Shown: positions 7,796 to 53,210, counted from the first letter of the stretch. The stretch is 64,000 nt of DNA from an uncultured Candidatus Saccharibacteria bacterium (GCA_964402215.1 CAYOAT010000001.1:70703-134702); one strand, 5' to 3'. Made by a program: numbers and translations. The notes: generated by a model not told the origin, from the sequence alone.

Positions 7796-7832
7796 AATCT
7801 TTGATTTAAATAATTAAAAAACACTTTTAATT

Positions 7833-8906: not shown

Positions 8907-8960
8907 TTAGGAATAATATACAACGTTTAAGGCGTATTATCCAGTAATTTACAAGTTATT

Positions 8961-10226
8961 TTAGACTTTTAATAAGTTTAAAAAATGATCTGGGTTCTCC
9001 TGCGGACCAATAATAGCAAGATTTAGACCGCTATTTTTGATAATATCTTTCATTACTCTCTGAATTTGTGTGGAGGTGACTGACTTAATTTTCTTTGCAT
9101 ATTCATCAGGAGACTGAATCTTTTCATGAAGGACTTCCTGTTCCCCGTAATAGTCTGTCCAATCTTCAGATGTTTCTAAACCGGTCGCCAGATTACCCAA
9201 AATAATGTCTTTGGCTTTTACCAATTCTTTTTCAGAAACTTTTTCATCACGAAGTTTTTTAAATTCATCAATTATTACTTTTATTGCTTCCACGGCACGA
9301 TTATTTGTTGCTCCAATTCTGACTAGAAAATTTCCGTAATCAATTGATGTGTCATTAAATGCATTAACGTAATAACAAATTCCCAATTCGTCACGCATTT
9401 TTTTAAATAATCTAGAACTCATTCCGGAACCCAAAATTGTTGTCGCCAGGTCCATTATTGGATTTCTTTTATCATGAAGATTATAGGAACGAAAACTGAT
9501 TATCATGTGTGTCTGATCAATTTTCTTATTTAAAACCTTTATTTGTGGATTTTTTTGGTCAATAATTGTTTTCTGTTTTTTTACAATCGGCTTTTTCTTT
9601 ATAGAACCAAATTTCTTTTGAATTTCTTTAATTACACTTTGTTCATTAATTTTACCTGACACAACTACAACAGTTTTCTGAGGAACATAATGTTTATCAT
9701 GATAGTTAACAAAATCATTTCTTTTAAAGGATTTTATATTTTCTGTTGTTCCACCAATTTTTCGACCAGCAGGCTGATCACCGAAAAGTAATTCCGAATA
9801 GACTTCAAAAATCTTTCTCATCGGAATATCTTCATACATATTCATTTCTTCCAAAATTACTCCCCTCTCTGTTTCAATATCTTTTTCAGGAAAAATAGAA
9901 TTTAAATAAATATCTGAGACAATATCAATTAAATTATTTATTTTTTCGTATCTAGCCTTTGCATAATAACCTGTTCGAACGTCCCCAGTGAAAGCGTTAT
10001 CTTTCGCTCCTAAAGAAGCTAATTCATAATTGATTTGCTCTCCAGTACGATTTTTTGTCCCCTTGAAACACATATGTTCCAGAAAATGCGATAGACCGTT
10101 AATCTTTTTCTCTTCATATTCTGAACCAGCCTCGACAAGAACCATCACCATGGCTGTTTGTGATTCCTTCATTGGAACAGTAATAATTCTTAAACCGTTT
10201 GGTAAAATTTTCTTTTTATATTTCAT
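8961..10226 (-). CDS. M16 family (insulinase-like) zinc peptidase
   Basis: inverted zinc motif HFLEHMCFKGT (HxxEH). Confidence 0.8.
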   Translation of the reverse strand: MKYKKKILPNGLRIITVPMKESQTAMVMVLVEAGSEYEEKKINGLSHFLEHMCFKGTKNRTGEQINYELASLGAKDNAFTGDVRTGYYAKARYEKINNLIDIVSDIYLNSIFPEKDIETERGVILEEMNMYEDIPMRKIFEVYSELLFGDQPAGRKIGGTTENIKSFKRNDFVNYHDKHYVPQKTVVVVSGKINEQSVIKEIQKKFGSIKKKPIVKKQKTIIDQKNPQIKVLNKKIDQTHMIISFRSYNLHDKRNPIMDLATTILGSGMSSRLFKKMRDELGICYYVNAFNDTSIDYGNFLVRIGATNNRAVEAIKVIIDEFKKLRDEKVSEKELVKAKDIILGNLATGLETSEDWTDYYGEQEVLHEKIQSPDEYAKKIKSVTSTQIQRVMKDIIKNSGLNLAIIGPQENPDHFLNLLKV

Positions 10227-39282: not shown

Positions 39283-39373
39283 GGAGAGATGGCAGAGTGG
39301 TTGAATGCACCGGTCTTGAAAACCGGAATACTCGAAAGGGTATCGTGAGTTCGAATCTCACTCTCTCCGCCAA
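39283..39373 (+). tRNA. tRNA-Ser (anticodon TGA), encoded CCA
   Basis: acceptor GGAGAGA/TCTCTCC, anticodon stem CCGGT/ACCGG with loop CTTGAAA, long variable arm, T-loop TTCGAAT. Confidence 0.9.
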
Positions 39374-39514
39374 GTCGTGACGGGTTATTTCTGCACGAGA
39401 CACGTCGATACTGTTTATACACAGTGGTTGAAATTTTTATCAAAAGCCTATTCAAAAATTAGTATCACTGAATTTATTTTATTTTGTTTTTTATACCCCC
39501 CCGTCATCATAATT

Positions 39515-40234
39515 TTATTTCTTATCCTCTAGGTATGATTCCATCATAAATCTTATTGTATTATTTATTTTTCCTACGATTTTTACTATATCATTTAAAT
39601 AGTTTTCAGATTTTATTTTCAATAATTTATCGGTGTAGGAACTAACTGCACCATCGCAATAATAAAATCTTGTTGTAGAAACATTATCACCTAAGGAATA
39701 GTAGGCTTTTTGGTTGTAATTGTTCTTAGGCGAATCAAAAAAAGTATTTATAAAACCAGATCTTATTTCCTTTAGAGATTGATCGTAGTGGAAGGTCACA
39801 TTACTTCTAATCCTTGATATATGAGACAAAAAATCATTTTTATTTTCATCATACAAAACATCTAAAACATCATGCCAATCATTTCTTATATCTGATGGTA
39901 ATTTTTTTTCAAAAAGAATAAACGATATTGAGCTAGTAACCTTTTTATTCTTTTCAAGAAAAATAAATAATTCACTAGTCAAACTGATAATTAATCTATT
40001 TAAATGATTATTAAGACCGGCCCAAGAGCCAAGATGGTCATTTGGTGGTTCACTATTATCAGAATTCGGTTTTCTATATTCCTTTACTATATATTCAACA
40101 AAAAACAACAAATCTTTCAAATCATTAAAAATCAAACCCAATACCAAAAAGAAATTATCAAAATCACTATCCTTATCCTTCTGTATAATTTTAGATGGAT
40201 TGATACTTTTTAAATTTCCCTCAAATTCTTTCAT
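39515..40234 (-). CDS. hypothetical protein (possible HEPN-like Rx5H motif, unverified)
   Basis: 239 aa, no TM; RIRSNVTFH resembles an Rx4-6H motif; directly downstream of the UvrD-like helicase. Confidence 0.45.
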   Translation of the reverse strand: MKEFEGNLKSINPSKIIQKDKDSDFDNFFLVLGLIFNDLKDLLFFVEYIVKEYRKPNSDNSEPPNDHLGSWAGLNNHLNRLIISLTSELFIFLEKNKKVTSSISFILFEKKLPSDIRNDWHDVLDVLYDENKNDFLSHISRIRSNVTFHYDQSLKEIRSGFINTFFDSPKNNYNQKAYYSLGDNVSTTRFYYCDGAVSSYTDKLLKIKSENYLNDIVKIVGKINNTIRFMMESYLEDKK

Positions 40235-40304
40235 TATTTTTCATTAATATTTTATTAACACATTTTGAATTTGCTCCTCAAGATTTTTTTGCATGACGAT
40301 GAAA

Positions 40305-42218
40305 CTAATTTTGGTCAACCTGTTTTATCGGAATTTTGGAATCTCTAAGAAATCTGGTCAATGTTCTTTTTTCTGTTCCACTATTACTTCCCGAATGTCT
40401 TTGTTGTCCAATTCGTTTATTGCAATAGCTGATAAACAATTTATGTCTTGCTCTTGTCATGGAAACATACAACAACCGTCTTTCATCGCCCTCTTTATCT
40501 CCAGTATTTCGTCCTGGAATATACTCATCTTCTGCACCAACTATGAAGCACACATCAAAAGACAAACCTTTTGCTTGGTGCATAGTGAGTATATTAACAG
40601 CATTTTCTTTTGTTTCTTGTTCGATATATTCTGACGAAGTGCTTACTATTTTAATTAAACCTTCGAGATCAGCTTTTTCTTGACTCTCCAAAATGCCAAC
40701 AAAATATTTTTTTACTTGTTCCCTGATCTCTCCTTCACTCATAAATTTATCGACTGTCGCAGTTATCGCTTCAATAGGATTTTGGATTGCTTTGAGTTCC
40801 ACTATTGCCACATTTATTTCGGAAACAAATTTTGCTATTTTTTGTCCAAACTTTTGTAATTCATTCGGAGATTCAACTATTTTTTGTAGAGCCACGCTAA
40901 ATCTTATTCCCCTGCTTTGAGCGTAATTCCATATATTTTTTATAGACTCATCACCCAAGCCGTTTGTTTTATCGACTTGTAATAATGTTCGCCAAGCTAA
41001 ACAATCGTTTTGATCAACTAGCAAACGAATAATTGATAAAACAATTCTATACTCATTATTGCTTTCTAGCTCGGAATCAGTCGTCAAAGACACATCAACG
41101 CTTTGCTTTTTCAGGGCTTCAATAATTGGCTTAGACAATGAGCCATTACGGTCGCTTCTTAATAAAATTGTGATTTGATCTGGCTTAATATCTTTGGCAA
41201 TCAAGCTTTTTATTTTTTTAGCTATGATTTCAGCTTCATGGTTTTGATCTTTAAATCCAATTATCAAAACCTCACCGTCTTCCGATTGGTCTTTCGGGCG
41301 TGTTGGCTTCGGTAATCGTTTAGGATCGAGACTGGCAACAAATTCAGCTGAATGTAAAATGTTTTTATCACAACGAAAACATATTTCTAACGCCAATTTT
41401 TTGGAATCTTGATATATCTGTTCAAAATTTCTTATACCTTCGGGGGTTGCGAAACGGAAGCCGTAGATACTTTGGTCATCATCTCCCGCAACAAATAATT
41501 CCGCACCTCGTTTTGCTAACTCGTTGACTATCGCAAGGTCGCAAGCGTTTAGGTCTTGATATTCATCAATCAAGATATGCTTATATTCTTTGTCCAATTG
41601 GAAATCTCTGCTTTGGTTTAACTGCTTTTTCAGTTGATAAACAAGTTCTGCTCTCAATGTTTCGCCATATTGATCTTTGTGGCTTCGCCACGCACCAAGA
41701 AAGGAGGGGTTTGGAAATTGTTGCTCCCAGCCAATTTCATCAATTCTCAAAGTTTCCCAGTCAGTTGAAAGCTGGTTGATCAAGTTTTGGACATCGCCAA
41801 TTTCTTTGAGGCTTAGAACTTTTTTTAAATCCTCTTGGATAATATATCTTTCTTCCCAGTCATCGGCTATTCTGATTGGTCTTGGCAATGTATCAATTCT
41901 GCTTGAATTATGAAGAATTTGTCTCAACGCAAAGGAGTGAAGCGTTGATACTTGAGGAATTGTTTTTCCTAAAGGTTCTAAAACTTTCTTGATTTCATCT
42001 TTCAGTTGAGCGGCGGCTAAACGGGTAAATGTAAGCAAAAGAATTGATTCTGGGTCAACATTATGTTGGAGAATTAAAGAAAGTACACGCCGAGTAAGCG
42101 TTTTTGTTTTACCCGTTCCTGGTCCAGCAAGTAATCTTGCATGACTGCCAATGTGGTCAATCGCTTCGATTTGATCGCTTGTAGCGTCGCCGTGAATTGT
42201 TGTTTTTATATCGTCCAT
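40305..42218 (-). CDS. UvrD/Rep/PcrA-family SF1 DNA helicase
   Basis: Walker A AGPGTGKTKT, motif II ILIDEYQDLN, GDDDQSIYGFR, C-terminal QAKGLSFDVCFIVG and VSMTRAR. Confidence 0.9.
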   Translation of the reverse strand: MDDIKTTIHGDATSDQIEAIDHIGSHARLLAGPGTGKTKTLTRRVLSLILQHNVDPESILLLTFTRLAAAQLKDEIKKVLEPLGKTIPQVSTLHSFALRQILHNSSRIDTLPRPIRIADDWEERYIIQEDLKKVLSLKEIGDVQNLINQLSTDWETLRIDEIGWEQQFPNPSFLGAWRSHKDQYGETLRAELVYQLKKQLNQSRDFQLDKEYKHILIDEYQDLNACDLAIVNELAKRGAELFVAGDDDQSIYGFRFATPEGIRNFEQIYQDSKKLALEICFRCDKNILHSAEFVASLDPKRLPKPTRPKDQSEDGEVLIIGFKDQNHEAEIIAKKIKSLIAKDIKPDQITILLRSDRNGSLSKPIIEALKKQSVDVSLTTDSELESNNEYRIVLSIIRLLVDQNDCLAWRTLLQVDKTNGLGDESIKNIWNYAQSRGIRFSVALQKIVESPNELQKFGQKIAKFVSEINVAIVELKAIQNPIEAITATVDKFMSEGEIREQVKKYFVGILESQEKADLEGLIKIVSTSSEYIEQETKENAVNILTMHQAKGLSFDVCFIVGAEDEYIPGRNTGDKEGDERRLLYVSMTRARHKLFISYCNKRIGQQRHSGSNSGTEKRTLTRFLRDSKIPIKQVDQN

Positions 42219-42334
42219 ATATTTATATTATACCATATTTAAGCACAAAAAGCCATAAGCAATGAGCTAAAATGTGCTTATTATTAGCCACGTAATTGGC
42301 TTTATTTGTTATACTTGACAAAAGTTGTTTTTAT

Positions 42335-43708
42335 TTAAGATTTCAACGAAATCTTCTTATCACTCAACATAATCTCACTCTTAAAACACCCTAGTAATTC
42401 CCTCTTTTCCAAGGCGGAGCCGTCTCTCAAAATGTATTTAGCATAATTTCTGATATCGATATCGCTAACAATAATTTTTTCTTTCGTTCCTAAAATTATC
42501 TGTTGAAACTTTTTAAATTTCTCAACGTCAGTTTTGATTTTTTCTTTGATCTTAATTTCACTAATATCAATTTGATCTAGTAATTCTTCAAATTGAACAA
42601 TTAGATCTTTTTCTTCAATATAGCCACACGGACAGTTTTTATCTTTATTCTTGGTACATCCATAATAAACGTAGCGATGAACATTTCCATTTTTCTGTCT
42701 TTTAAATTTTTCATCTGCTGATATACCAGATCCACACAATCCGCAATACATTAGTTTAGTGAAAGCGAATTCTTTATTTTCAATTCTTATAAAACTACTC
42801 TTGATCTGACTCTGTACCAAATCAAATAATTCTTTAGTGATAATTGGTTCGTGTTTTCCTTTGTACCAGTTTCCGCTTTTCTTTGGATATTCAAATTCAC
42901 CATAATAAAAATGGTTGTTGAGGATTGTAAAAATATTACCGAGACTAATATGTTTCTTGCCACAAACGGTTCTAAAGTTTAATTCAAATTTCAACCAGTT
43001 GTATATTTTCTTTCCGCTCCAATGTTCGTGTGCAACTTTCTCAAACATTTTTTTAATAGTTGGTGCTCTTTCTGAATCAATATAACACTGACATTTTCTA
43101 TCTGTCCTTTTTTCTTTCAAATAACCAGTCGGTGCAGGACCTGGCCACAAACCCATCTCAACTCTGGTGCGAAGTCCCCTTTTAACGTTGATACTTTTGT
43201 TGTCATTTTCTAATTTAGCTTGGGAACACAAAATCATTAATAGAAATTTTTCATTCGGTGAATTCTTAAAAGTCTGACCATAAGTTCTGATCTCTTGAAG
43301 CTTTGACTCATCCATCAAATCAACTAGCGACCCCAAGTCTCCTGCATTTCTAGATAATCTATCTGGTGCCCAGGTTAATATGCCATTAAAACGTCCAGAA
43401 TCGATATCAGACAGTATTTCCTTGAAGACTGGTCTCTGACCGGAATCTTTAGCTGAATGTGCCTCACGTCTTATTTCAACGATTTCCAGACTCTCTCTTT
43501 CAGCTATTTGCAACATCTCTTTAACTTGTGAATCAATTGATAATATTTGCCGTTCTTCAGCTTCAGTTGATTTACGAGCGTATAGAACATACTTAACTGG
43601 AACAGCTTGAACGACCTTCATATCACCAATTAATCCAACATTTGTCTTTGTCTCCATACAACCATTAATGACAGAACCGTTGGTTTTGCTAAGCGAAGTT
43701 GTCGACAA
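42335..43708 (-). CDS. large serine recombinase (resolvase domain + recombinase domain + zinc ribbon)
   Basis: catalytic YARKSTEAEE (Ser) N-terminal domain, recombinase domain, Cys4 ribbon CGLCG...CPCG; start probably at an internal Met. Confidence 0.9.
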   Translation of the reverse strand: MSTTSLSKTNGSVINGCMETKTNVGLIGDMKVVQAVPVKYVLYARKSTEAEERQILSIDSQVKEMLQIAERESLEIVEIRREAHSAKDSGQRPVFKEILSDIDSGRFNGILTWAPDRLSRNAGDLGSLVDLMDESKLQEIRTYGQTFKNSPNEKFLLMILCSQAKLENDNKSINVKRGLRTRVEMGLWPGPAPTGYLKEKRTDRKCQCYIDSERAPTIKKMFEKVAHEHWSGKKIYNWLKFELNFRTVCGKKHISLGNIFTILNNHFYYGEFEYPKKSGNWYKGKHEPIITKELFDLVQSQIKSSFIRIENKEFAFTKLMYCGLCGSGISADEKFKRQKNGNVHRYVYYGCTKNKDKNCPCGYIEEKDLIVQFEELLDQIDISEIKIKEKIKTDVEKFKKFQQIILGTKEKIIVSDIDIRNYAKYILRDGSALEKRELLGCFKSEIMLSDKKISLKS

Positions 43709-43763
43709 CGTGTTGGCAAGAATTCTTAGCGAAACAATAAAATCGCGATATTATACTAAACAC

Positions 43764-44972
43764 ATGGAAATATTAATTTTTGGCGGAATAGCTGTCTTTA
43801 TGATAATAGGATTTATCTCTTGGATAATGGAGATAAATGAAAATTCAAAAAAATATTTGGATTTAAAACCAAAACTAGATTCTCTAGAAAAAGATCGCCA
43901 AGATCATCTAACGAAAGTTAAAAAATTAGAGGAAACAACTGAAATAGTTAAAAGAGATTTACATAAAATTGCTGAACAAAAATCAATGGGTTTTCCTTGG
44001 TTGGCAGAAGCTTACGCAGAATATTTTTCTTTACGTGATTTAATGGTAGAAAAATATTTGGAAAACAAAAGACATCCGGCATATACAGCCGCAGAAGCAG
44101 TAAGAGAAATTAAAAAAGAGAAAAAGAAACTCCTAAAAGAAAATAAAATTATTTCTTATAAGATAAATTATTTTGAGAAGTTATTCCCATGGCTGAGTGA
44201 ACTTATAGCGGAAAATGAGCAGGAAGATATACCAGTAATGATAGACGACGATCAAATCGAAGATAATGATGACAGAGTTAAAAATTATTTAACACAAGAT
44301 GAATATAGAAAGTTGCCATCAGTAGAAAGAAATCAAAAAGCGCTGGACAGATATTTACAAAATAGAAATAAATCCAAATGGGCTATTGGTAGAGATTATG
44401 AAATGTACGTGGGACATCTTTATGCACAGGATGGTTACATTATTGAATATAAAGGAATAATTGATGGTTTTGATGATTTGGGCAGGGATATAATTGCAAA
44501 GAAAAATGGTGAGATCTGCATAATTCAATGTAAATATTGGGCGCAATATAAAGATATTCATGAAAAACACGTATTTCAATTATTCGGAACCACAATGGAA
44601 TATTGGCTGAAAAATTTTGTTAGTAAGGGCACTAAAAATAATTTTTCTGAGTTTTCAAGATTTTTGGATGAAGAAAAAATTAGACCAATATTTTTTACTT
44701 CCACAACATTATCAGAAAGAGCTAAGGAAATGGCGAAAGCCTTAAGCGTTGAGGTTATCGAAAGTAAACCAATTTCTGATTTTCCAAGAATTAAGTGTAA
44801 TATCAATGTCGATGAATTTGGAAAAGAAACAAAAATTTATCACCTACCGATGGATCAACAATATGACCGTACAATTATAGGAAATAAAAAGGGTGAATTC
44901 TATGCTTATACAGTTAAAGAAGCTGAGGGCGCTGGATTTAGAAGGGCTTTTAAACACAAGTTTAGTAAATAA
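43764..44972 (+). CDS. membrane-anchored coiled-coil protein with C-terminal Mrr-like (PD-(D/E)xK) restriction endonuclease domain
   Basis: N-terminal TM, long charged coiled coil, Mrr_cat-like core GFDDLGRDIIAKKNGEICIIQCKYW and C-terminal YHLPMDQQYDRT...AGFRRA; start set at the internal Met that avoids overlap with the recombinase. Confidence 0.7.
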   Translation: MEILIFGGIAVFMIIGFISWIMEINENSKKYLDLKPKLDSLEKDRQDHLTKVKKLEETTEIVKRDLHKIAEQKSMGFPWLAEAYAEYFSLRDLMVEKYLENKRHPAYTAAEAVREIKKEKKKLLKENKIISYKINYFEKLFPWLSELIAENEQEDIPVMIDDDQIEDNDDRVKNYLTQDEYRKLPSVERNQKALDRYLQNRNKSKWAIGRDYEMYVGHLYAQDGYIIEYKGIIDGFDDLGRDIIAKKNGEICIIQCKYWAQYKDIHEKHVFQLFGTTMEYWLKNFVSKGTKNNFSEFSRFLDEEKIRPIFFTSTTLSERAKEMAKALSVEVIESKPISDFPRIKCNINVDEFGKETKIYHLPMDQQYDRTIIGNKKGEFYAYTVKEAEGAGFRRAFKHKFSK

Positions 44973-45142
44973 TTTAGTAATATTCCGTCGACGAAATTTC
45001 GACAGTTTCGTTTAATAAAAATTATTCCAAATATAACGATCTCTTGAGACAAGTTAAAGATTTACTATCAGAAAAAGGAATCAAAGATATTAGTCTACTA
45101 GACGTTCACTCCTTCGTCTGGATGATCTATAATTTTAGGTAA

Positions 45143-45592
45143 TTAACGGTTGTCTGATTCAGAAGGTTTTTCTTCAACCCATCCCTCAAGGGAATTGCCA
45201 CCATTTTTTTCAATCTCTTCATCTCTCTCAACATCCTCTTTTCGGCTGTATATTTTAACTTCTATAGCATCAATTTTTTCCTTCCCCATATCTTCCCAGA
45301 AATTCTTTGGTCTCGGTCTCATATATTCTTTTTTATGATTATCAAGCCAATATCTATATGCTCTGGGTTTTCCGATTTTTATATCCGTGATTAACTTACT
45401 TTCTGCCAGATCATTTATGGATTCCACTCCGAGTTTTTTGGCCTCATCTACATTTTTAGAAAATCTTTTCTCATTTTCCATCCATCTATAAACAGTCTGT
45501 CTTGATAAACCAACACGTTCACAGGCCACAGAAATGTTCGCTGTTTTTGCCAATTCTTCTATGAATGTTTTTTCTAATGACTTCTTCTTCAT
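45143..45592 (-). CDS. HTH protein resembling phage terminase small subunit / transposase-type HTH
   Basis: N-terminal HTH ISVACERVGLSRQTVYRWM; translationally coupled to upstream ParB-MTase gene. Confidence 0.5.
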   Translation of the reverse strand: MKKKSLEKTFIEELAKTANISVACERVGLSRQTVYRWMENEKRFSKNVDEAKKLGVESINDLAESKLITDIKIGKPRAYRYWLDNHKKEYMRPRPKNFWEDMGKEKIDAIEVKIYSRKEDVERDEEIEKNGGNSLEGWVEEKPSESDNR

Positions 45593-46863
45593 ATACTTTC
45601 AACCTTGGCTTTCTGACCCGTTAATTTTTCATATCTTGCAATAATGAGATCACAATATATTGGTTCTAGCTCGACCAAATAAGCTTTTCTTTTTAGTTTT
45701 TCACAAGCAATCAATAGACTTCCAGATCCACCAAAAGAATCTAGAATAATATCACCAGGTTTAGTACATCGCCTTATCGCTTTTTCGTATAGATCAACAG
45801 GTTTCTGGGTGGCATGTTCCATTTCCTTTCCAGAAACTCTTTTCGAAGTCCAAATATTTATATCATCGATAGCTTTGTTTCCACTTCCAACATTTACATT
45901 CATGATTTCATTCTGGCCAAATTCTTTTTTCGATAAATAAGGCTTTCCGAGAGTTCCATAAATACATGGTTCATAACATTTTGAGAAAGCCACTTGAGGT
46001 GTTTCATTTTGTGCGTTTTTTATCCATAAACAGACTCGGCGATTTGTAATACCAAGTTCTCGGTAAAGAGACTGTATGATCCAAATCTGTTGTTCTGTAT
46101 TCCAATAAAATATATGGCTATCTGGCTTAGTGAACAATAGAGCAGTTGAGATATTTTTTCTCAAAAATTCTATGTATTCTTTTTCGGTTCTATCGTCATT
46201 AACATTTCCTCCGTAATCTTTCTTCCCGCCGACTCCTTTATTGTATTTAATCTTTAAATTGTAGATTGGGTCAGAAAATATAGTATCCGCTTTTTCATAA
46301 CCAAATAATCTACTCAGTGTTTTTTCTTCATTTGAGCTTCCACAGATCAGGCGGTGGTCACCCAAAGTTACCAGATCTCCAATTTTAGTTTTAGGAACTT
46401 TGATTTTAGCTAATTCTTTTTTCTCGTCCCAATCATCCGTTGAGACACTAATGTCGCCATCCCAGATATTAGCAATATCGTCGAAACTAAAGCCTGAGTC
46501 AGTTAACAAACCAATCTCGAAGTCTTTCAAGGATTCATAATTCCAATCTCCAGTGACAGCATTTGATGTTAGAAGATATCTCTCATATTCTTCTTTAGTT
46601 AGTCTTCGGTTTGGTATTCTGACATCTATCTCTTCATCACCACGACCAAGAATTTGCATCACTTTTAATCTTTGGTGGCCAGCAATTATTTTATTGTCAG
46701 TATCTATTGCAGGGATTTCAACTAAATTAAATCTTTCTAAACTTTTCTTTAAATTTGATTCCTGGTCTGCAGACATCACCCGAGGGTTTTTATTGTATGG
46801 GACCAAATCATTTACTTTGCGCCTGGTCGTGCGCCACATGAGAGGTTCGTTATTGTTTATCAT
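45589..46863 (-). CDS. ParB-like nuclease domain fused to N4/N6 DNA methyltransferase
   Basis: ParB/Srx N-terminus (IIAGHQRLKV), MTase motif IV SDPIYN and motif I LDSFGGSGS. Confidence 0.85.
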   Translation of the reverse strand: MINNNEPLMWRTTRRKVNDLVPYNKNPRVMSADQESNLKKSLERFNLVEIPAIDTDNKIIAGHQRLKVMQILGRGDEEIDVRIPNRRLTKEEYERYLLTSNAVTGDWNYESLKDFEIGLLTDSGFSFDDIANIWDGDISVSTDDWDEKKELAKIKVPKTKIGDLVTLGDHRLICGSSNEEKTLSRLFGYEKADTIFSDPIYNLKIKYNKGVGGKKDYGGNVNDDRTEKEYIEFLRKNISTALLFTKPDSHIFYWNTEQQIWIIQSLYRELGITNRRVCLWIKNAQNETPQVAFSKCYEPCIYGTLGKPYLSKKEFGQNEIMNVNVGSGNKAIDDINIWTSKRVSGKEMEHATQKPVDLYEKAIRRCTKPGDIILDSFGGSGSLLIACEKLKRKAYLVELEPIYCDLIIARYEKLTGQKAKVESI

Positions 46864-46963
46864 AATTATTAAATCCTTTTTATTTCAGTGGATTTGATAA
46901 TTATGATAACTTTTCGGTTGATTCTATGTAACCGATTTTTGACCCCTTTTAAGCGTCCCACAC

Positions 46964-47689
46964 TTATCTGGCCCGTCTCTTGTTTCTATATATAGTTTTT
47001 GATATTTTTCTTGGTGTATAGATATCTGTATCATGTGCATCATTTAGTTTTTTAGAAATTTCAGACGGGCGATAGGTCTTACTTAAATGATAAATTTGTT
47101 TATTTAAATTACTTTGCTCTCTCAATCTAACCTGTTGTAAGTGTGGCGATATCTTTTTATATCTATTTTGAATTATCTTAATCTTACTAAAATTTTTACC
47201 AACATATTCTTCTATATCTCTCCTTGATGCATCTACGCTAACTAATATCGCCACAGGAAAACCAAAATTCTCAACAAAATCATTATTTTTGATTTTCTTT
47301 TTCGCCTGAACCATGTCGATAGAAATAACAGTGTTGATATCGCTTGTAATTATGTATGTGTTGTAAAACAAAATCCAATTAAAAACATTTGGATATGTAT
47401 TCAAAAGACTAATATTATATTTATCTAATAACTCGGAGATTTGATTTTGTAAATCAATTAAATACTTTTGTCTAATACCTTTTAACCACACCTTCGGATA
47501 TTTAAATGAGTTATAACCCAACGTCTCATATCCCATTGGTTTATCGGCAAAACCATTTAGCGGAATTTTAAATTTGCTTCTAAGTAGTCCTAGATCTTTT
47601 TGAAAACCCGATCTTTTTCTTAACCGCTCTAACACTTCAAACAAATGATCTTGCGATTTTGTAAAAATAGAGTGAAATTTCTTGGGCAT
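46964..47689 (-). CDS. hypothetical protein
   Basis: 241 aa, basic C-terminus, no recognisable motif. Confidence 0.4.
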   Translation of the reverse strand: MPKKFHSIFTKSQDHLFEVLERLRKRSGFQKDLGLLRSKFKIPLNGFADKPMGYETLGYNSFKYPKVWLKGIRQKYLIDLQNQISELLDKYNISLLNTYPNVFNWILFYNTYIITSDINTVISIDMVQAKKKIKNNDFVENFGFPVAILVSVDASRRDIEEYVGKNFSKIKIIQNRYKKISPHLQQVRLREQSNLNKQIYHLSKTYRPSEISKKLNDAHDTDIYTPRKISKTIYRNKRRAR

Positions 47690-47891
47690 ATTAGAGTAAT
47701 TATTATACTTTTTCGGATATAATCAAATAAGAATAAATAGACAGAATGCTAATAGTTAAATTTGACAATAAAATTATTTCATAGTCTAAAACGGTCATTT
47801 AATCAGCGCTTACATTTACGGGTCTATAATAAACATAGTGTGTAGCAGGGATAGTCGACCCATTAAAAGACTACACATTCAATAGATAATA

Positions 47892-48176
47892 ATGAGTAAA
47901 TTTATTTCCAGAGTAGAGCTAAATAATGCTACTTTAAATGAGTTTTCTTTGTTTCATGATACGATGTCTGATCTTGGTTTTTCACAAGAACTTCCAATTG
48001 AAAATGGCGATATATACAGATTACCTAGGGCAACCTATCGTATTGTGAAAGATGTTGTTATACGAGATATTTTAAATCTTATTAAACAAGCATTGAAAAC
48101 AATTAATAAAACCGCCGAAATCTTTGTTGTAAAGTACACGGATTCAGATTGGGACGGGCTAGATTTAAAGGAATAG
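47892..48176 (+). CDS. hypothetical small protein
   Basis: 94 aa ORF with plausible spacing from a divergent promoter region. Confidence 0.35.
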   Translation: MSKFISRVELNNATLNEFSLFHDTMSDLGFSQELPIENGDIYRLPRATYRIVKDVVIRDILNLIKQALKTINKTAEIFVVKYTDSDWDGLDLKE

Positions 48177-48296
48177 GTTAAATTGAGCAAAAACGGACTA
48201 ATATAACGCGCTAGATTGGTGGAGAAATTCAGTATACTGTCAAAAATCAGAGTTGTAACCTATGACCAGCGGTAGAACGGCCGTACCTAGCTTATA

Positions 48297-48327
48297 AAAA
48301 CCAGATTCAATTCGAATCTGGTTTTTA
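48297..48327. terminator. bidirectional hairpin terminator
   Basis: AAAAACCAGATTC-aa-TTCGAATCTGGTTTTT. Confidence 0.55.
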
Positions 48328-48365
48328 ATTACTTTTTTGCAATAGAAAAAGTGACAAAAGTGTCA

Positions 48366-48480
48366 CTTTTGTCACTTTTTGCCCTGCTCGAGACTCGTCG
48401 ATTTGGTATACTTAAAAAATCTTAAATAAGCATTACGGGGCTTAACCGATAAAAGTTCTAACACGAGACGGCCCGCCAAG
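48366..48480 (+). repeat. copy A of ~115-bp repeat ending in a tRNA-Ser 3'-end-like sequence (att-like)
   Basis: aligns along its length with 50787..50900 (shared cttttgNcactttttgccNtgctcgagactcgtcgattt ... cattacNgg ... gttctaac.cgag ... ccgccaag); last 10 nt cgccaagtcg equal tRNA-Ser 3' end plus flank. Confidence 0.7.
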
Positions 48481-48534
48481 TCGAGCTAGCACGAGGAACG
48501 TTAAGTATTTAAAATTTTACAATTAAAAGATAAA

Positions 48535-49866
48535 TTAAAACATCAACCATCCTGGCTTAAAGATGATTAAAATTCCAATTATTAACATAATTAATCCACC
48601 AATTAATCTTGAGGCACGAGCATATTTTGTTGTAATCCCTGTCATTTCCAACGTGACCATCGCCACAAAAAAGATAAACAAGTCATCGAGCATAAAAATT
48701 AAAATATAAAGTGAGATATACAAATAATATTGCCAAGTTGGTATCTGATTTAGGGCGAGTAGTTGAGTATAGACTGCGGGTAAACCGGCGGAACAAAGGA
48801 TTTCAACTAAATTGACTGCTGCCGCTAATAAAATAATTCCACCTAAAGCTAGCCACAAACTATTTTGATCAACAACAAGTCTCATCTTCTCAAAAACCTT
48901 TTTTCTTTTCTCGTCACCCGCTACTTTACATCCGCCATCTCTATTAAAAATAAATTCTTTGAGACTATAGCCACCGCCCAAAATCGCGATAATACCTATT
49001 AACATTCTAACCCAAATGACAAATCCTAAAAATAAAATTAGATTCAACCACGCAGACATAAACAAAAAATAAACTAGGGCTGATGACACAATAAAAACAG
49101 AACCCAATAACCACATCCTTTTTCTGTTTTTAATCCCAAGCAATAAACTAATAAGGAACAAGAGGGTCCACATTGCACACGGATTAAAGCCGTCCAAGGC
49201 CCCCATAATTATGGTCACCAAAGGTAGCGAAAAATCCGCCAAACTGATTTCTCCTAATAATGGAATATTGATTTTATTGTCTTGATTCGTTTTTGATTCT
49301 GGAACAGAATTATCAACAACATTATTTTCTTCATGCTCAATGACAGAAGTGGCGGTTTCTAAATTTTCAATAGAAGTATCTAAATCTGGATCAGAATTCG
49401 GCATCACTACATCATCAGAGATTACCAAATTAACAAGGCTGGGTTTCAAACCAACAATATTCGCAACTTGATCTGTACATTTACCCTTCAGACATTCTTC
49501 AAGTTTTTCTTCTATCTCCAAAGAAGTGATTCCACCGGCATAACCAACAAAAGCACTATCACCGATAACCAAAAACGGCACGCCACTAATATCAATATTT
49601 AATGTGCTGGCAACTTCCTTTAAAAGAGATAAATTGTTGTAATTATAATAAATTTCATATTCATAAATATTTAGATTTGGATATTTTTTATTTAAGGACT
49701 CATAAATATATTGCCTTTCTTGCGCACAATGAGGACACCCATCGCCATAAAAAAAATAAAGGTTTATAAAATTTTGAGATTGTGCATAAACATTTGATAA
49801 AAGGAAAAAAAATAAAATCACCGAGAAAACAATGCCAAGAACAAATTTTTTATAAAGAGTCAACAT
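48535..49866 (-). CDS. thioredoxin-fold domain fused to CcdA/DsbD-type transmembrane thiol-disulfide transporter
   Basis: signal/TM, CPHC active site in the N-terminal domain, TM domain with DGFNPCA and LCSAGLP cysteines. Confidence 0.7.
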   Translation of the reverse strand: MLTLYKKFVLGIVFSVILFFFLLSNVYAQSQNFINLYFFYGDGCPHCAQERQYIYESLNKKYPNLNIYEYEIYYNYNNLSLLKEVASTLNIDISGVPFLVIGDSAFVGYAGGITSLEIEEKLEECLKGKCTDQVANIVGLKPSLVNLVISDDVVMPNSDPDLDTSIENLETATSVIEHEENNVVDNSVPESKTNQDNKINIPLLGEISLADFSLPLVTIIMGALDGFNPCAMWTLLFLISLLLGIKNRKRMWLLGSVFIVSSALVYFLFMSAWLNLILFLGFVIWVRMLIGIIAILGGGYSLKEFIFNRDGGCKVAGDEKRKKVFEKMRLVVDQNSLWLALGGIILLAAAVNLVEILCSAGLPAVYTQLLALNQIPTWQYYLYISLYILIFMLDDLFIFFVAMVTLEMTGITTKYARASRLIGGLIMLIIGILIIFKPGWLMF

Positions 49867-49868
49867 AA

Positions 49869-50138
49869 TTATCTATCAAAATTTTTATGAATTATTTCAA
49901 TTAATTTTGTTTTATCAATTTCACCATTTAGTCGTAGAAATTCTACACCTTGTTTGTCTAAAAAAACAAAAGTCGGCAGGATGTTTGTAATATTATATTT
50001 TTCTACCATCTCTTTATCCTGATCAAAATCATAATATTCCGTTATTAATGCAGAATTCTCTGCCTCAATTTCTTTCCACCTTGGTTTCATCACGAGACAT
50101 CCTGGACACCAAACTGCACCAAATTTTAGCACTTTCAT
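49869..50138 (-). CDS. thioredoxin-like protein
   Basis: WCPGC active site, 89 aa. Confidence 0.8.
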   Translation of the reverse strand: MKVLKFGAVWCPGCLVMKPRWKEIEAENSALITEYYDFDQDKEMVEKYNITNILPTFVFLDKQGVEFLRLNGEIDKTKLIEIIHKNFDR

Positions 50139-50150
50139 ATATTAAATATT

Positions 50151-50429
50151 TTAATTTTTAACTATTTTTATCGCCTTCCCATTAATCAATGAATCGGCAA
50201 TCTTTTTATATGCTGAATTAATAATTCTCTGATAGGTGCTTGCCGAGGTCTTCATCTCCTGTGCTGCTGATTCTTGATCTAGATCACTGACATATCTCAA
50301 TCGATATGCCTCAAGTTCTTCATGGGTAAGTTCAATAACAGCAAGGTTTCTCATTGGAATACCCTGTGGTTTAAAATATGTAACGTCAGGTCTAAATTGA
50401 ATTTTTCGACACAATCTTGGTCTTGGCAT
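50151..50429 (-). CDS. DUF134/UPF0251 family putative DNA-binding protein
   Basis: MPRPRLCRKI...FKPQGIP...LTHEELEAYRL...QESAAQEM..S.STYQR...KKIADSLINGKAIKI matches the UPF0251 pattern. Confidence 0.7.
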   Translation of the reverse strand: MPRPRLCRKIQFRPDVTYFKPQGIPMRNLAVIELTHEELEAYRLRYVSDLDQESAAQEMKTSASTYQRIINSAYKKIADSLINGKAIKIVKN

Positions 50430-50495
50430 AACTAAATTATTATAGCAAATAATTAAAATCGCCCCATTTTATAGTAAAGCGATTTCAATTATAAT

Positions 50496-50702
50496 TTACG
50501 AGACTTTGTTTTGCGGAGAAGTTTGTCTTATTCCGTTTCCTCTCCTAATTCCACGTCCTCTTCCACCACCTCTTCCTGGTCCACCTACAGAAACTTGTCT
50601 ATTAGCTACATTTCCCTGTGGTGATTCATCTCCACATGATCCCATTCCACGACCAGTTTTTGGACCTTTTCCATTTGGGCCAGTCCTATCAAAATTTGGC
50701 AT
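50496..50702 (-). CDS. small Gly/Arg-rich protein (DUF5320-like partner of DUF134)
   Basis: MPNFDRTGPNGKGPKTGRGMGSCG N-terminus typical of small proteins found beside DUF134 genes; low complexity so existence is moderate. Confidence 0.5.
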   Translation of the reverse strand: MPNFDRTGPNGKGPKTGRGMGSCGDESPQGNVANRQVSVGGPGRGGGRGRGIRRGNGIRQTSPQNKVS

Positions 50703-50753
50703 ATATATTTATATTATTGCTGTTAATAGATAGTTTATTCACTATCTATTATG

Positions 50754-50782
50754 AGTATATACCCATAACTATCTTGTGTCAA
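50754..50782 (-). promoter_or_regulatory. sigma70-like promoter for the DUF5320/DUF134/thioredoxin operon
   Basis: minus-strand TTGACA (50777-50782), 17-nt spacer, TATACT (50754-50759), ~45 nt upstream of the first ATG. Confidence 0.5.
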
Positions 50783-50786
50783 ACAT

Positions 50787-50900
50787 CTTTTGCCACTTTT
50801 TGCCATGCTCGAGACTCGTCGATTTTGAAAACCAAAATATGCTAAAATAACATTACAGGACCTGGCCGAGAAAGGTTCTAACTCGAGGCTCTCCGCCAAG
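50787..50900 (+). repeat. copy B of ~115-bp repeat; contains degenerate tRNA-Ser-like anticodon-arm and 3'-end sequences
   Basis: aligns with 48366..48480; ends ctctccgccaag, identical to the last 12 nt of tRNA-Ser incl. first C of CCA context; also contains ttgaaaacc like the tRNA-Ser anticodon arm. Confidence 0.7.
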
Positions 50901-50961
50901 AAACATATTTCTAAAATCGAGACTGGAAAAGTCGGGGCGAGGCGCTATAATTTATAATTAT

Positions 50962-51120
50962 GATTAAAACTATATTAATTATTTTCTTAATTTTTATCTC
51001 TGCTGTAATAATTTATTTCATCCTTGGAAACCTTGGTATTGTGCCATTAAGACACTGTGATAGTGCTATGGGCCCATCAGGACAGATATATTTTTGTGAA
51101 TGGTATAGCGGACCACCAAG
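50962..51120 (+). CDS. possible small membrane protein (52 aa), not in ORF track
   Basis: ATG ORF MIKTILIIFLIFISAVIIYFILGNLG... one TM helix; below the ORF-track length cutoff. Confidence 0.25.
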
Positions 51121-51132
51121 TATATATTGACT

Positions 51133-51405
51133 TTACTTTGCCAAACTCAACATAAATTCTTCTAAATCAGTTAATCTTTCAAGAGAAATATCAGTTGTTT
51201 TTTTAAGAAGTTTAATCCCCTGTCTAATTTCCTCCTTATCAATTCCAGCCTGGGATCCAGACTCGTACAGATGCCCCTCAAAAACCATTTTGGCTTTTTC
51301 ACGATCATTATTACTCCAGTCATGTGAAGACAAAAAAACCAAAACTCTTTCTTTAAATTCCGTTTCAGATACTATTGGTTTTGAACTACTCCAAAATAAT
51401 CCCAT
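51133..51405 (-). CDS. hypothetical protein
   Basis: 90 aa, no motif recognised. Confidence 0.4.
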   Translation of the reverse strand: MGLFWSSSKPIVSETEFKERVLVFLSSHDWSNNDREKAKMVFEGHLYESGSQAGIDKEEIRQGIKLLKKTTDISLERLTDLEEFMLSLAK

Positions 51406-51514
51406 GTTAGTTACAATTATTTGTTAATGAAGATATTATACCGGAAAGAACGACTATATAACAACAGCCTAAACCCCGTTTCAAACAAAACCTTGATAAT
51501 TTCGCTTCTCCTAT

Positions 51515-52561
51515 TTGATAAAGATGCTAAAATTAGGACAAATGATATTTTTTATACTTAATTCAATATTGGCGCTTGTTGGAGTTTATATTTCGCGAAT
51601 GATTTTTCTAAAGAAAAAATCATCTGAAAGTGTAGTTTGCTATATCGGCGGCAGCTGTGATGATGTCTTATCAAGTAAATTTTCAAAATTCTTTGGTGTT
51701 GGAATTGATATTTTTGGGATAATTTATTACTCCGTTTTATTTTTAGGATATCTTTATCTATCTATATTTAAACCTATGCCTGAAATTATCTTTGGTTTGT
51801 TTGTTATGGCCTTTATTGGTTTCTCTTTCTCTCTTTACTTGGTTTTTGTCCAAGCTTTGTATTTGAAAAAATGGTGTCTCAATTGTTTTTCTTCAGCCAT
51901 AAATTCAGTAATAATTTTTATTCTCGCATCAATTTCTTTTTCTGATTATTTTGGTGTCGTGGGAGTTTATCTTGCAGAAATGGTTAATACACTAAGCCTT
52001 GTTCATTTAATTGGAGTGGCAATAGGTGTCAGTGCTGCAACAATCGGTGGGTTTATGATTATTAATTTTTTGAAAGATTTTAAAATTGACAGTCATGAAG
52101 ATAGAAAATTAACAATTTTAGATCAAATCGTTTGGTTGGCGGTGGCTACCCTTCTCGTAGTTAATTTATGCTATTACATAATAGATCCTGAACTTTATTT
52201 TGGTTCATCACAATTTCTGTCGCAATTAGTCATTTTCATTGTTTTAATTATTAACAATGCTTTTCTAAGTCTCTATATTAATCCAAAACTTATTGGTATT
52301 AGAATTGATATGAAATCAATTAATGTCTTTAGAACATTTTGGCTTCGCCAGTGCGCACTAGCGATGGGTGTAATTTCTATTATTTCTTGGTATACAATCC
52401 TTTTTGTTTCCTTCTTTGCAAAAATAACCGACGACAGTATCATAAATGTCATCAGTTATTATGTTGCCATTACAATAATGGCAGTAATTGTAAGTCAGCT
52501 AGCTATCCTTCTTGTTGATAAAATAAAAATTACAAGCGATAATACATATAAGTTTAAATAA
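51515..52561 (+). CDS. vitamin K epoxide reductase (VKOR) domain membrane protein with C-terminal multi-TM extension
   Basis: loop cysteines CYIGGSCDDV...SKFSKFFGV and TM active site WCLNC. Confidence 0.7.
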   Translation: MIKMLKLGQMIFFILNSILALVGVYISRMIFLKKKSSESVVCYIGGSCDDVLSSKFSKFFGVGIDIFGIIYYSVLFLGYLYLSIFKPMPEIIFGLFVMAFIGFSFSLYLVFVQALYLKKWCLNCFSSAINSVIIFILASISFSDYFGVVGVYLAEMVNTLSLVHLIGVAIGVSAATIGGFMIINFLKDFKIDSHEDRKLTILDQIVWLAVATLLVVNLCYYIIDPELYFGSSQFLSQLVIFIVLIINNAFLSLYINPKLIGIRIDMKSINVFRTFWLRQCALAMGVISIISWYTILFVSFFAKITDDSIINVISYYVAITIMAVIVSQLAILLVDKIKITSDNTYKFK

Positions 52562-52562
52562 C

Positions 52563-53033
52563 ATGCCACAAAAAAGTATATCTTGGAGAGCATACGATCA
52601 CATTAAAGAAAAAAAATCAGAGGACTGGTTCTGGATTGTTGGGATTGTTGCAATTGCCATCGCCATACTTGCAATTTTCTTTAATAATATTTTATTTGCA
52701 CTTTTAATTGTATTGGCAGCTTTTTCTTCTTTTCTATTAGCACATAGCGCCCCAAGAGTAATTGATTATGAAATCAGCCGAAAAGGAATCCGTTCCGGTG
52801 ACGTAATTTATCCTTTTTCAAGTGTTGAATCTTTTTGGACAGTTGATGAAGATGGCTACGAAAGAGACAGAATACTGGTTAAATCAAAAAAATTCTTTAT
52901 GCCGATGATCACAATTCCTGTTGGAGATGGCGCAAATCTAGAGGAAGTTCGTGAATGTTTACTACAGTATTTAAAAGAAGAAGAACTGCACGAACCATTT
53001 TATGAATATTTAATGCACATTTTGGGTTTCTAA
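52563..53033 (+). CDS. hypothetical membrane protein
   Basis: 156 aa, two N-proximal TM helices; coupled to VKOR gene (1-nt gap). Confidence 0.4.
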   Translation: MPQKSISWRAYDHIKEKKSEDWFWIVGIVAIAIAILAIFFNNILFALLIVLAAFSSFLLAHSAPRVIDYEISRKGIRSGDVIYPFSSVESFWTVDEDGYERDRILVKSKKFFMPMITIPVGDGANLEEVRECLLQYLKEEELHEPFYEYLMHILGF

Positions 53034-53106
53034 TTTTTTATTTTCGCTTGATTTATATTGAAAAAGAAAATAGTATTCAATTTGCGATGTTTTTTTCGTA
53101 AATATC

Positions 53107-53178
53107 GTCCCCGTAGTTCAATGGATAGAATGCAAGATTGCGGATCTTGCGACCCAGGTTCGACTCCTGGCGGGGGCA
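53107..53178 (+). tRNA. tRNA-Arg (anticodon read as GCG)
   Basis: acceptor GTCCCCG/CGGGGGC, anticodon stem CAAGA/TCTTG with loop TTGCGGA, T-stem CCAGG/CCTGG with loop TTCGACT. Confidence 0.65.
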
Positions 53179-53210
53179 CAAAAAATATTTAAACAAGCTA
53201 TAATATTTGC

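Follow-up and report, generated by a model that had tools for sequence, protein, structure and literature searches.

Two direct copies, A and B, of a repeat of ~115–140 bp bracket a small thiol-disulfide gene module in a 64,000-nucleotide stretch of DNA (the window; CAYOAT010000001.1:70703-134702) from an uncultured Candidatus Saccharibacteria bacterium. Very probably, these repeats are the right-hand attachment (P) arms of two related integrative islands that owe their movement to a large serine recombinase (LSR) and are targeted to the 3′ ends of tRNA genes; this reading takes the target in the window to be the 3′ end of tRNA-Ser(UGA) and the hosts to be Paceibacteria-type bacteria of the Candidate Phyla Radiation (CPR). 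The initial annotation had proposed serial site-specific integrations at tRNA-Ser, and this proposal was borne out by the linkage of the repeat to LSR genes, by its absence from LSR-free relatives, and by the presence, right after copy A, of the sequence (P′) that marks the left end of such islands. The assignment is carried by the membership of both copies in one repeat family, the linkage of arm, LSR and tRNA, the differing symmetry of the junctions at A and B, and the lack of the arm in LSR-free relatives. The earlier reading needs correction in two respects: the copies are not tRNA mimics, as shown below, and, judged by its predicted domains, the integrase belongs to the serine class and not to the tyrosine class.

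According to a profile derived from homologous copies, copy A occupies 48339-48479 and copy B 50769-50900, both on the plus strand; the left edge of copy A lies ~27 nt further left than first described, and the full arm comes to ~140 bp. The claim that 48366-48480 and 50787-50900 align along their whole length holds, with 79% identity over 115 nt (BLASTN; E 7e-22), and a repeat search of the window returned 83% gapless identity across the first 64 nt. Both copies contain the exact 20-mer TGCTCGAGACTCGTCGATTT, which has no other site in the AT-rich window (~34% GC) even when three mismatches are allowed; shuffled sequences are expected to contain none. Within the wider family described below (L numbers designate its loci and those of relatives), copy B groups with the copies at L090 and L097 (..CTCTCCGC) and copy A with those at L054 and L082 (..GGCCCGCC). 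Because A and B group with different foreign copies, they represent two element lineages. A local duplication of A into B was ruled out, each copy being closer to other genomes’ copies than to its partner.

The ends of the copies match the end of the tRNA gene. Copy A terminates in ...ggcccgccaagtcg at 48470-48483 (also written ..GGCCCGCCAAGTCG), and the tRNA-Ser gene with its flank reads ..CTCTCCGCCAAGTCGTG. As had been stated at the outset, the end of copy A equals the tRNA-Ser 3′ end plus its flank, the 11-mer CCGCCAAGTCG occurring both at 48473-48483 and at 39367-39377; likewise, copy B ends in the last 12 nt of tRNA-Ser, ctctccgccaag at 50889-50900 being identical to 39363-39374. In these same intervals, attL and attR sites with a short common core can be written (CCGCCAAGTCG for copy A, CTCTCCGCCAAG for copy B). 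Over all junctions examined, the only identity common to tRNA and arm is CCGC, which is present at the junctions of L091, L096, L097 and L100; in the window it extends to 11–12 nt. Such a shrinking of the tRNA–arm identity to CCGC is expected for a serine recombinase, and the CCGC within the 11-nt identity would be the crossover region. The alignment of both repeats with the tRNA-Ser gene, proposed earlier as a check, was carried out: the three sequences agree only at GTTCnAA and over the final 8–12 nt. The tRNA-Ser T-loop GTTCGAAT (GTTCGAA) and GTTCTAAC of the repeat (GTTCTAA) stand in the same register, a likeness that fits one recombinase reading both sites.

The label “tRNA-Ser 3′-end mimic,” first given to the copies, did not survive, the ~115–140 nt being the element’s own arm. 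Were the repeats displaced 3′ portions of tRNA-Ser (pseudo-tRNA fragments), as with tyrosine-integrase islands that duplicate 15–50 nt or more, the 12 nt (copy B) and 11 nt (copy A) held in common with the tRNA end would be explained, as would the T-loop-like GTTCTAAC in its register and the TTGAAAACC of copy B. The last of these had been remarked upon as a likeness to the anticodon arm. It is indeed present at 50825-50833; however, most other family copies have TTTGATATACT in that column of the family alignment, and the match is most likely a lineage-specific, chance resemblance. Other data also speak against a tRNA origin. ARAGORN finds seven tRNAs in the window, none of them within either copy, and the tRNA model of Rfam has no match in 48200-51000 at E ≤ 10. 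No T-stem pairing flanks GTTCTAAC. The loss of identity down to CCGC is exemplified by L091, where the tRNA ends ..CCTCCGCATGAC and the repeat ..GGCCCGCAAAAT. The recombinase of the island is an LSR, and a tyrosine integrase is absent from the island; moreover, the same arm stands beside a tRNA-Ser(cga), and the same type of LSR occurs at a tRNA-Trp. We regard the pseudo-tRNA explanation as extremely unlikely, and the family alignment already contradicts it.

The P′ motif has the consensus GTCGWGC, an optional GTTAT loop, and GCWCGAGAy. It comes right after tRNA ...CCGCCA in the window and at L096, L097, L100, L102 (a tRNA-Trp) and L108, and it also follows copy A (GTCGAGCTAGCACGAGGA) and the repeat of L054. 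In the window, the P′ beside the tRNA (P′1) includes a motif at 39393-39411 that resembles block II, one of three conserved blocks (I–III) of the arm; a partial nhmmer match covers 39390-39411 (E 0.014). The terminus of the repeat itself, P-left, is GGTTCTAACWCGAG-N6-CCGC. We compared P-left with the reverse complement of P′ over 24 positions and scored the result against 20000 shuffles. At junction A (copy A plus the P′ that follows it, P′2), 13/24 positions matched, a value reached by 6/20000 shuffles; L096 gave 14/24 (18/20000) and L054 13/24 (58/20000). At these three junctions, the attP so reconstructed has the symmetry of an imperfect inverted repeat, like the attP sites of LSRs. Neither copy B with its flank (1/24) nor the site of L110 (6/24) scored significantly. 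Because copy A is followed by a P′ with attP-like symmetry, junction A is an element–element junction; the flank of copy B has no such symmetry, and junction B is therefore an element–chromosome junction that resembles attR. The internal junction joins an arm to the next left arm (A + P′2), and the outer junction joins copy B to native flank. The proposal that each integration left an att repeat is thus upheld, with a dyad that is significant at junction A.

The flank of copy B, CGCCAAGAAACAT, is A-rich and resembles the flank of L082, CGCCAAGAAAAT; in other genomes, too, the flank after the repeat is A-rich, often with a terminator hairpin that is presumably the tRNA’s own. A further junction is defined by two contigs of Ca. 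Paceibacteria JTS-AC200 (L039 and L054), whose sequences agree fully through the repeat up to ..CCGCCAA and part there, placing a recombination junction at that point. Both contigs carry stacks similar to that of the window: in L054, the repeat is followed by P′, LSR-less genes and a core-only remnant, and in L039 by a unit with an LSR.

A search of relatives, also suggested initially, returned homologous copies in other contigs of Paceibacteria type, mostly near an LSR gene. In the genome collection, the pattern CGAGACWCGTCGAT-N(55-85)-CCGCCA retrieved 77 loci, 74 of which were chance matches in GC-rich genomes; the three true loci are the JTS-AC200 pair, both contigs of which start with the repeat, and L082, from a metagenome-assembled genome (MAG). 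A metagenome scan yielded four further distinct copies (L088/L092, L089/L093/L095, L090 and L091/L094). In IMG/VR, the 16-mer GCTCGAGACTCGTCGA had eight matches, all in unrelated GC-rich sequences, and a query with the LSR protein found no relative; the database thus lends no support to a catalogued virus.

Linkage between repeat and LSR was found from both directions. By tblastn, LSRs that are 58–73% identical are encoded at L082, L088/L092, L089/L095 and L039, and the distance from repeat to LSR is 140 nt at L082, 0.8 kb at L088/L092 and 7.7 kb at L089/L095. Loci fetched by LSR homology alone (L096, L097 and L100) have exactly one repeat copy each according to the profile, located 1.0–7.5 kb upstream of the LSR start and on the opposite strand; LSR and repeat lie on opposite strands in every linked case. 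Beyond the 3′ end of the LSR, on the repeat’s strand, is a tRNA gene: Ser(tga) at L097, Ser(cga) at L096 and Ser at L100. At L091, an N-terminal LSR remnant lies between tRNA-Ser(tga) and the repeat. The common layout is therefore tRNA(+) – cargo – LSR(−) – cargo – repeat(+). L097 is also syntenic with the window, having RuvX, a tRNA-binding protein and PilM on the left and tRNA-Arg(GCG), S20 and RuvA on the right, and its cargo is wholly different from that of the window.

The recombinase at L102 is 76% identical to that of the window and resides at a tRNA-Trp(cca), with the P′ motif after GGGCCCGCCA. This tRNA end (L102, 15586-15694) fits the end of copy A, ..GGCCCGCCA, better than tRNA-Ser does, and the arm subtype may track the target tRNA. 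The L102 flank has a full copy of block II, GCTCGAGACGCGTCGA, and its cargo includes a homologue of the Druantia protein DruA.

A dispersed short repeat, or an element like a miniature inverted-repeat transposable element (MITE), without relation to tRNA integration would account for the assemblies that break at the repeat and for the two JTS-AC200 contigs that begin with it, which indicate at least two copies per genome. Yet the 64 kb hold only two copies, both inside the tRNA-Ser island, and the marks of a MITE or of the end of an insertion sequence are missing, for there are neither terminal inverted repeats nor a target duplication, nor was an inverted partner found. An LSR, an LSR remnant or a directly adjoining P′ arm accompanies most full copies, and the 20-kb loci of LSR-free relatives carry none. 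We give this explanation hardly any credence.

These relatives (L108 and L110–112) were found through RuvX. They have the order RuvX–tRNA-Ser(UGA)…90-aa open reading frame (ORF)–VKOR–156-aa ORF–tRNA-Arg(GCG), no LSR, and no match to the repeat profile at E ≤ 1. They provide unoccupied sites, L108 being a decayed one: its tRNA region is 94% identical to the window at the nucleotide level, and it still has the P′ motif and ~13 nt of the left edge of the repeat. Since the right-hand genes are kept in the LSR-free relatives, the 90-aa ORF, VKOR, the 156-aa ORF and tRNA-Arg of the window are native. Two small genes still lie between the tRNA and the common 90-aa ORF at L110. Island content between the conserved flanks differs among the window, L097, L108 and L110, and the space from tRNA-Ser to the 90-aa ORF is a hypervariable hot spot. 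Given that the repeat is linked to LSR genes in independent contigs and absent from LSR-free synteny, it belongs to the insertions.

The following model would accommodate these data. Each unit would consist of the P′ left end, located after tRNA ..CCGCCA; a variable cargo, whose LSR gene runs opposite to the tRNA; and the ~140-bp right arm. Recombination of attP (P arm plus P′) with the tRNA end would place P′ beside the tRNA and the P arm beside the old tRNA flank, with a crossover within CCGC or beside it. The two LSR half-sites would be block III on the arm and, in P′, the proximal GTCGWG. The order in the window would then be tRNA-Ser, P′1, a 9-kb LSR island (island 1), copy A, P′2, an LSR-less module (module 2), copy B and native flank. 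Such a stack could have arisen through a second integration into the occupied site, in which attP recombined with attL or attR; through the integration of a fused circle; or through homologous exchange between arms. Canonical LSRs pair attP with attB only, and stacking therefore needs an unusual pairing or another route.

Several points weigh against the attachment-arm assignment. Stacking demands a non-canonical route, and none was directly observed. Within the same population, neither an empty site nor a circular junction or excision product could be found; contigs simply end at the breaks in island 1 described below. The combination of the first arm with P′1 in the window and that of L100 are weaker dyads (12/24; ~240/20000 shuffles), an insertion in P′1 and in the L100 P′ weakening the outer half-site, and L097 is not significant (8/24). 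L113 has no repeat in the 2.7 kb available upstream of its LSR, and L102 has none in 10 kb. Finally, module 2 may be an old, immobile remnant: it has no recombinase, and its DUF134–DUF5320 genes also occur in the LSR-free L108. Both ends of module 2 look intact, with P′2 on one side and, on the other, blocks II and III of copy B, which match the consensus.

Table 1. Features of the tRNA-Ser locus in window coordinates.
Feature	Position	Strand	Basis or sequence
tRNA-Ser(UGA)	39283..39372	+	ARAGORN, Rfam; 3′ end = chromosomal (B) half of left junction attL1
11-nt identity	39367..39377	+	CCGCCAAGTCG; matches copy A end 48473-48483
P′1, left end of island 1	39373..39411	+	AGTCGTG-ACGGGTTATTTCT-GCACGAGACACGTCGAT
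Island 1 body, ~9 kb	39412..48338		ORFs, Pfam, terminator
UvrD-like helicase	40305-42218	−	ORF, Pfam
LSR	42335..43708	−	Pfam PF00239 Resolvase, PF07508 Recombinase, PF13408 Zn-ribbon
Mrr-like nuclease, 434-aa ORF	43668-44972	+	ORF, Pfam
Helix-turn-helix (HTH)/small-terminase-like protein	45143-45592	−	ORF, Pfam
DNA methylase	45589-46863	−	ORF, Pfam
GhoS-like protein, 94 aa	47892-48176	+	ORF, Pfam
Bidirectional terminator hairpin, strong	48295-48327	both	Terminator search
Copy A, block I	48360-48380	+	GTGTCACTTTTGTCACTTTTT
Copy A, block II	48386-48404	+	GCTCGAGACTCGTCGATTT
Copy A, extended −10-like TGgTATACT	48404-48412	+	Motif
Copy A, block III	48454-48467	+	AGTTCTAACACGAG; copy end ..GGCCCGCCAA
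P′2, left end of module 2	48480..48505	+	GTCGAGCTAGCACGAGGAACGTTAAG
Module 2 cargo operon (2.4-kb module)	48535..50702	−	ORFs, Pfam
443-aa membrane protein, no Pfam match	48535-49866	−	Some homologues named glutaredoxin by the Joint Genome Institute (JGI)
Thioredoxin	49869-50138	−	ORF, Pfam
DUF134	50151-50429	−	ORF, Pfam
DUF5320	50496-50702	−	ORF, Pfam
Best sigma-70-like site of region, TTGACA-17-TATACT, 11/12	50754..50782	−	Consensus match only
Copy B, block II	50807-50825	+	Family alignment
Copy B, alternative extended −10-like TGCTAAAAT	50840-50848	+	Motif
Copy B, block III	50874-50887	+	GGTTCTAACTCGAG; end CTCTCCGCCAAG 50889-50900
Native chromosome right of stack	50901..53179		Flank AAACATATTT..; synteny with LSR-free relatives
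90-aa ORF	51133-51405	−	ORF
VKOR	51515-52561	+	ORF, Pfam
156-aa ORF	52563-53033	+	ORF
tRNA-Arg(GCG)	53107-53179	+	Window tRNA scan

The recombinase gene of island 1 encodes a three-domain LSR with an N-terminal Ser motif; its translation includes the sequence YARKST with the putative catalytic Ser. Homologues number more than 8000 proteins at E ≤ 1e-30, the top 120 of which are all at least 73% identical, and their sources are named Paceibacterota, Nomurabacteria or Campbellbacteria. The longest LSR ORF and the ORF of the Mrr-like nuclease overlap head to head by 41 nt (43668-43708). The true LSR start is probably an internal ATG, as database homologues begin 17 codons further in. Besides the genes listed in Table 1, island 1 has ORFs of 239 and 241 aa without an assigned family. 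Island 1 is interrupted in assemblies of the population, which break at 39490, directly ahead of a C7 run, and at ~47100-47180. The breaking assemblies are two contigs of JGI 3300020048 and one Logan contig of SRR7760390; the 199-kb NCBI contig alone spans the island. Coverage differences of the island could be responsible, or assembly problems only.

In other members of the family, cargo was examined as well. The stretch from LSR to repeat at L096 (CP064977.1, Campbellbacteria; 2353-9646) includes a 424-aa N6/N4 methylase like that of the window, an S24 peptidase (possibly a repressor), a pair of genes (CD-NTase and Cap15) of the cyclic-oligonucleotide-based anti-phage signaling system (CBASS), and a weak match to Terminase_6C that was flagged as faint. 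From this predicted cargo, the islands look like phage-derived or satellite-like defence islands. At L082, paralogous genes of 216/217 aa with closely similar N-termini (MEQYNDLFINTPESLE..) occupy 1261-1914 and 5628-6278, on both sides of the LSR and repeat, such that one is inside the island and the other in the flank.

The 2.4-kb segment between the copies had been read as a second cargo module. That view was supported: P′2 is on its left, copy B on its right, and native flank beyond. No recombinase is found among its genes. The 443-aa protein has 6811 homologues at E ≤ 1e-10, the nearest of which, besides the window’s own sequence, is 64% identical. The operon of DUF5320, DUF134, thioredoxin and a membrane protein of ~420 aa is widespread and conserved in CPR bacteria (L103–L107); Zip, cation-efflux, ParA/NifH-like or NifB-type genes are frequent extensions of it and suggest a role in metal/thiol homeostasis. 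At L106 and L107, this same operon is the cargo of a different LSR island (29% identity), which is also situated at tRNA-Ser. The recombinases there (L106, 780-2435; L107, 3217-4826) belong to a second, distant LSR family of 510–527 aa and lie directly against tRNA-Ser(gct/gga); these islands also carry a CI-like repressor (HTH_3 + Peptidase_S24) and Cro-like genes. They may represent independent targeting of tRNA-Ser by serine recombinases in CPR bacteria. At L108, DUF134–DUF5320 is retained at 71% nucleotide identity, and homology ends at the left edge of copy B; because so little of the arm is left beside these genes, such units evidently decay.

Does the repeat act as RNA? The initial annotation had offered, as an alternative, a conserved regulatory or RNA element of the module. 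Copy B lies directly upstream (on the minus strand) of the DUF5320 operon, most copies have an extended −10-like TGnTAnAMT, and an intrinsic-terminator hairpin follows the repeat at L088, L090 and L091; all of these features would be in keeping with a small RNA gene, or with a structured RNA that regulates the thiol-disulfide module in cis. The RNA analyses did not support this idea. Rfam returned no match to the repeat, either at the gathering threshold (whole window) or at E ≤ 10 (48200-51000), its output otherwise being the seven tRNAs and chance small-RNA matches around the terminator. Folding each copy by itself, in both orientations, gave no better values than shuffles did (z +0.3 to +1.1). 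RNAalifold, given 11 distinct homologues, found a weak consensus of −3.3 kcal/mol on the plus strand and −4.4 kcal/mol on the minus strand, and 0/8 plus-strand pairs were compensatory. Conservation is highest in blocks that precede the putative −10 and lowest in the part that would be transcribed. Read on the minus strand, copy A meets only the terminator and a convergent gene, and the neighbours of the repeat in other genomes (MscL, TsaD, a methyltransferase) are unrelated. The structured-RNA version of this alternative is largely refuted, and we deem the alternative as a whole very unlikely. A conserved small ORF was also considered. A 54-aa ORF at 50735-50899(−) was not matched, by eye, by an ORF in the corresponding frame of copy A; because the frames of A and B differ and the gaps in the family alignment are not multiples of three, this candidate was excluded.

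The organization of the arm poses a single puzzle, namely the strong conservation of its two distal blocks. Mean pairwise identity in the blocks is 0.89–0.91, compared to 0.41–0.75 in the stretches between them and 0.71 (nucleotide) in the LSR genes, and blocks I and II sit 70–120 nt from the junction. Block I has TGTCAC iterons. Block II has the consensus GCWCGAGACnCGTCGATTT; it has CWCGAGAC in common with block III, ~74 columns away, and it recurs in some P′ arms (39393-39411 in the window, and L102). Blocks I and II are probably protein-binding or promoter DNA; they may serve as an accessory site, as an outward promoter, or as both. A hairpin with a 10-bp stem (AAAAGTGACA/TGTCACTTTT; 48347-48370) follows the terminator and overlaps block I of copy A; palindromes of the GTGACATGTCAC type occupy its place in other copies and have an operator-like look. 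The best sigma-70-like site of the region reads into the DUF5320 operon, and its −35 hexamer is in the left edge of copy B; promoter-like matches in the region are no more frequent than in shuffles. An inward promoter was rejected as a general feature of the arm, for it is convincing in copy B alone, and L082 has no good match by eye.

At the other end, the extended −10-like motif reads outward in most copies. The arm abuts the start codon of MscL at L097 (6299-6310; ..CCGCAAA/ATG) and TsaD at L096 (2340-2355; ..CCCGC/ATGAAAATACTAGCAATAGAAAC, encoding MKILAIET), in the latter case ahead of the annotated start. Without an island, MscL and TsaD would start a few bases at most from the 3′ end of tRNA-Ser. 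Because of the motif and of these abutting start codons, an outward promoter in the arm that keeps the displaced downstream gene expressed is plausible.

One could go further and view the repeat primarily as a portable promoter/operator cassette at island ends, to which a regulator of the host or of the element would bind, and not as a recombination substrate. Blocks I and II are better kept than the LSR gene and lie beyond the ~50 bp of a typical LSR attP; the iterons and palindromes upstream, the contacts with the MscL and TsaD start codons, and the −35 hexamer in the edge of copy B would all be at home in such a cassette, as would a core-only copy in L054 (4589-4663) that precedes, by 6 nt, a 134-aa ORF whose N-terminus is TspO-like. 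The distal part alone, however, leaves three things unexplained: why contigs of a single genome part so sharply at CCGC(CA)A, why the invariant block III is placed like a tRNA T-loop, and why the arm forms a significant dyad with P′. The cassette is compatible with the integration model as regards blocks I and II, and the two compete only over the proximal part as an att site; as a full account of the repeat, the cassette is quite unlikely. A bolder proposal, which we find doubtful, is that blocks I and II are accessory LSR recombination sites that enable the use of occupied sites, such that the tRNA-Ser locus would be an integron-like cassette array. Accessory recombination sites are not known for large serine recombinases. 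If the proposal were true, the locus would capture recombinase-less modules such as the thiol/metal operon, arm promoters would drive their expression, and CPR bacteria would exchange them.

The attachment-arm assignment has several implications. Little is known of how CPR bacteria (Patescibacteria), whose genomes are tiny, exchange genes; an LSR with a known target, P and P′ arms, and stacking would provide a means to delimit islands in CPR MAGs. The repeat also explains assembly breaks at its copies, and the DUF5320–DUF134–thioredoxin–membrane protein operon emerges as a recurrent mobile cargo. In addition, the LSR with its sites offers a candidate integrase/att pair of natural origin on which genetic tools could be based, very few being available for these organisms. 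Within the literature covered, full-text searches returned nothing that joins Patescibacteria, serine recombinases and integrative elements, and a search for “Candidate Phyla Radiation” with “serine recombinase” returned an inovirus survey only, in two versions. The LSR element family of CPR bacteria thus appears to be so far undescribed, as well as very widespread.

In mechanism and layout, the closest known system seems to be that of the composite staphylococcal cassette chromosome (SCC) islands, SCCmec/psi-SCC. In staphylococci, the Ccr large serine recombinases act at the 3′ end of rlmH/orfX, and composite tandem islands occur. SCC elements have a conserved ccr complex, variable regions and flanking direct repeats, and the required sequences span ~60–70 bp (PMC10581047). 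The likeness lies in an LSR acting at the 3′ end of a conserved gene, in tandem stacking with variable cargo, and in recombinase-less stacked units bounded by direct repeats that contain integration-site sequence. Compared by layout, the present islands differ in using a tRNA 3′ end instead of rlmH and one LSR instead of ccrA/ccrB, in their CPR host, and in a ~140-bp arm with two extra invariant blocks 70–120 nt from the crossover. With the LSRs of phages (Bxb1, phiC31, A118, TP901-1) they have in common the Resolvase, Recombinase and Zn-ribbon domains, an attP that is an imperfect inverted repeat with a short core and few bases common to attP and attB, and, at L082, an integrase gene next to attP. 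Known phage LSRs mostly target protein-coding or intergenic sites, and minimal sites of ~40–50 bp suffice. Here, by contrast, the target is the discriminator/CCA end of tRNA-Ser (tRNA-Trp at L102), conservation on the P side covers ~120 nt, and the stacked arrays are unexpected under strict attP × attB specificity.

Accretion is a further point of comparison. In Streptococcus thermophilus, the cis-mobilizable elements (CIMEs) and the integrative and conjugative elements ICESt1/ICESt3 undergo tandem accretion, and integrase-less units keep both att ends. The arrays described here similarly would stem from repeated integration at one site, with integrase-less units that are possibly moved in trans. 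The tycheposons of Prochlorococcus form tRNA-proximal arrays with partial tRNA copies at their borders, and 910 of 937 elements have tyrosine recombinases, the rest an LSR (bioRxiv 10.1101/2020.12.28.424599). Both groups rely mainly on tyrosine recombinases and have longer tRNA or gene duplications at their borders, whereas the border repeat here is the element’s own arm, with CCGC common to all junctions (up to 12 nt in the window). Tyrosine-integrase islands at tRNA genes in general resemble the present ones in their 3′-end target, in leaving the tRNA intact with post-discriminator nucleotides supplied by the element, and in their hypervariable content between conserved flanks; they differ in recombinase class, the island described here having no tyrosine integrase, and in their long direct repeat of tRNA origin. 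Taken as an event, the locus is of an ordinary and known type, a stacked integrative island at a tRNA gene, found in a little-studied lineage.

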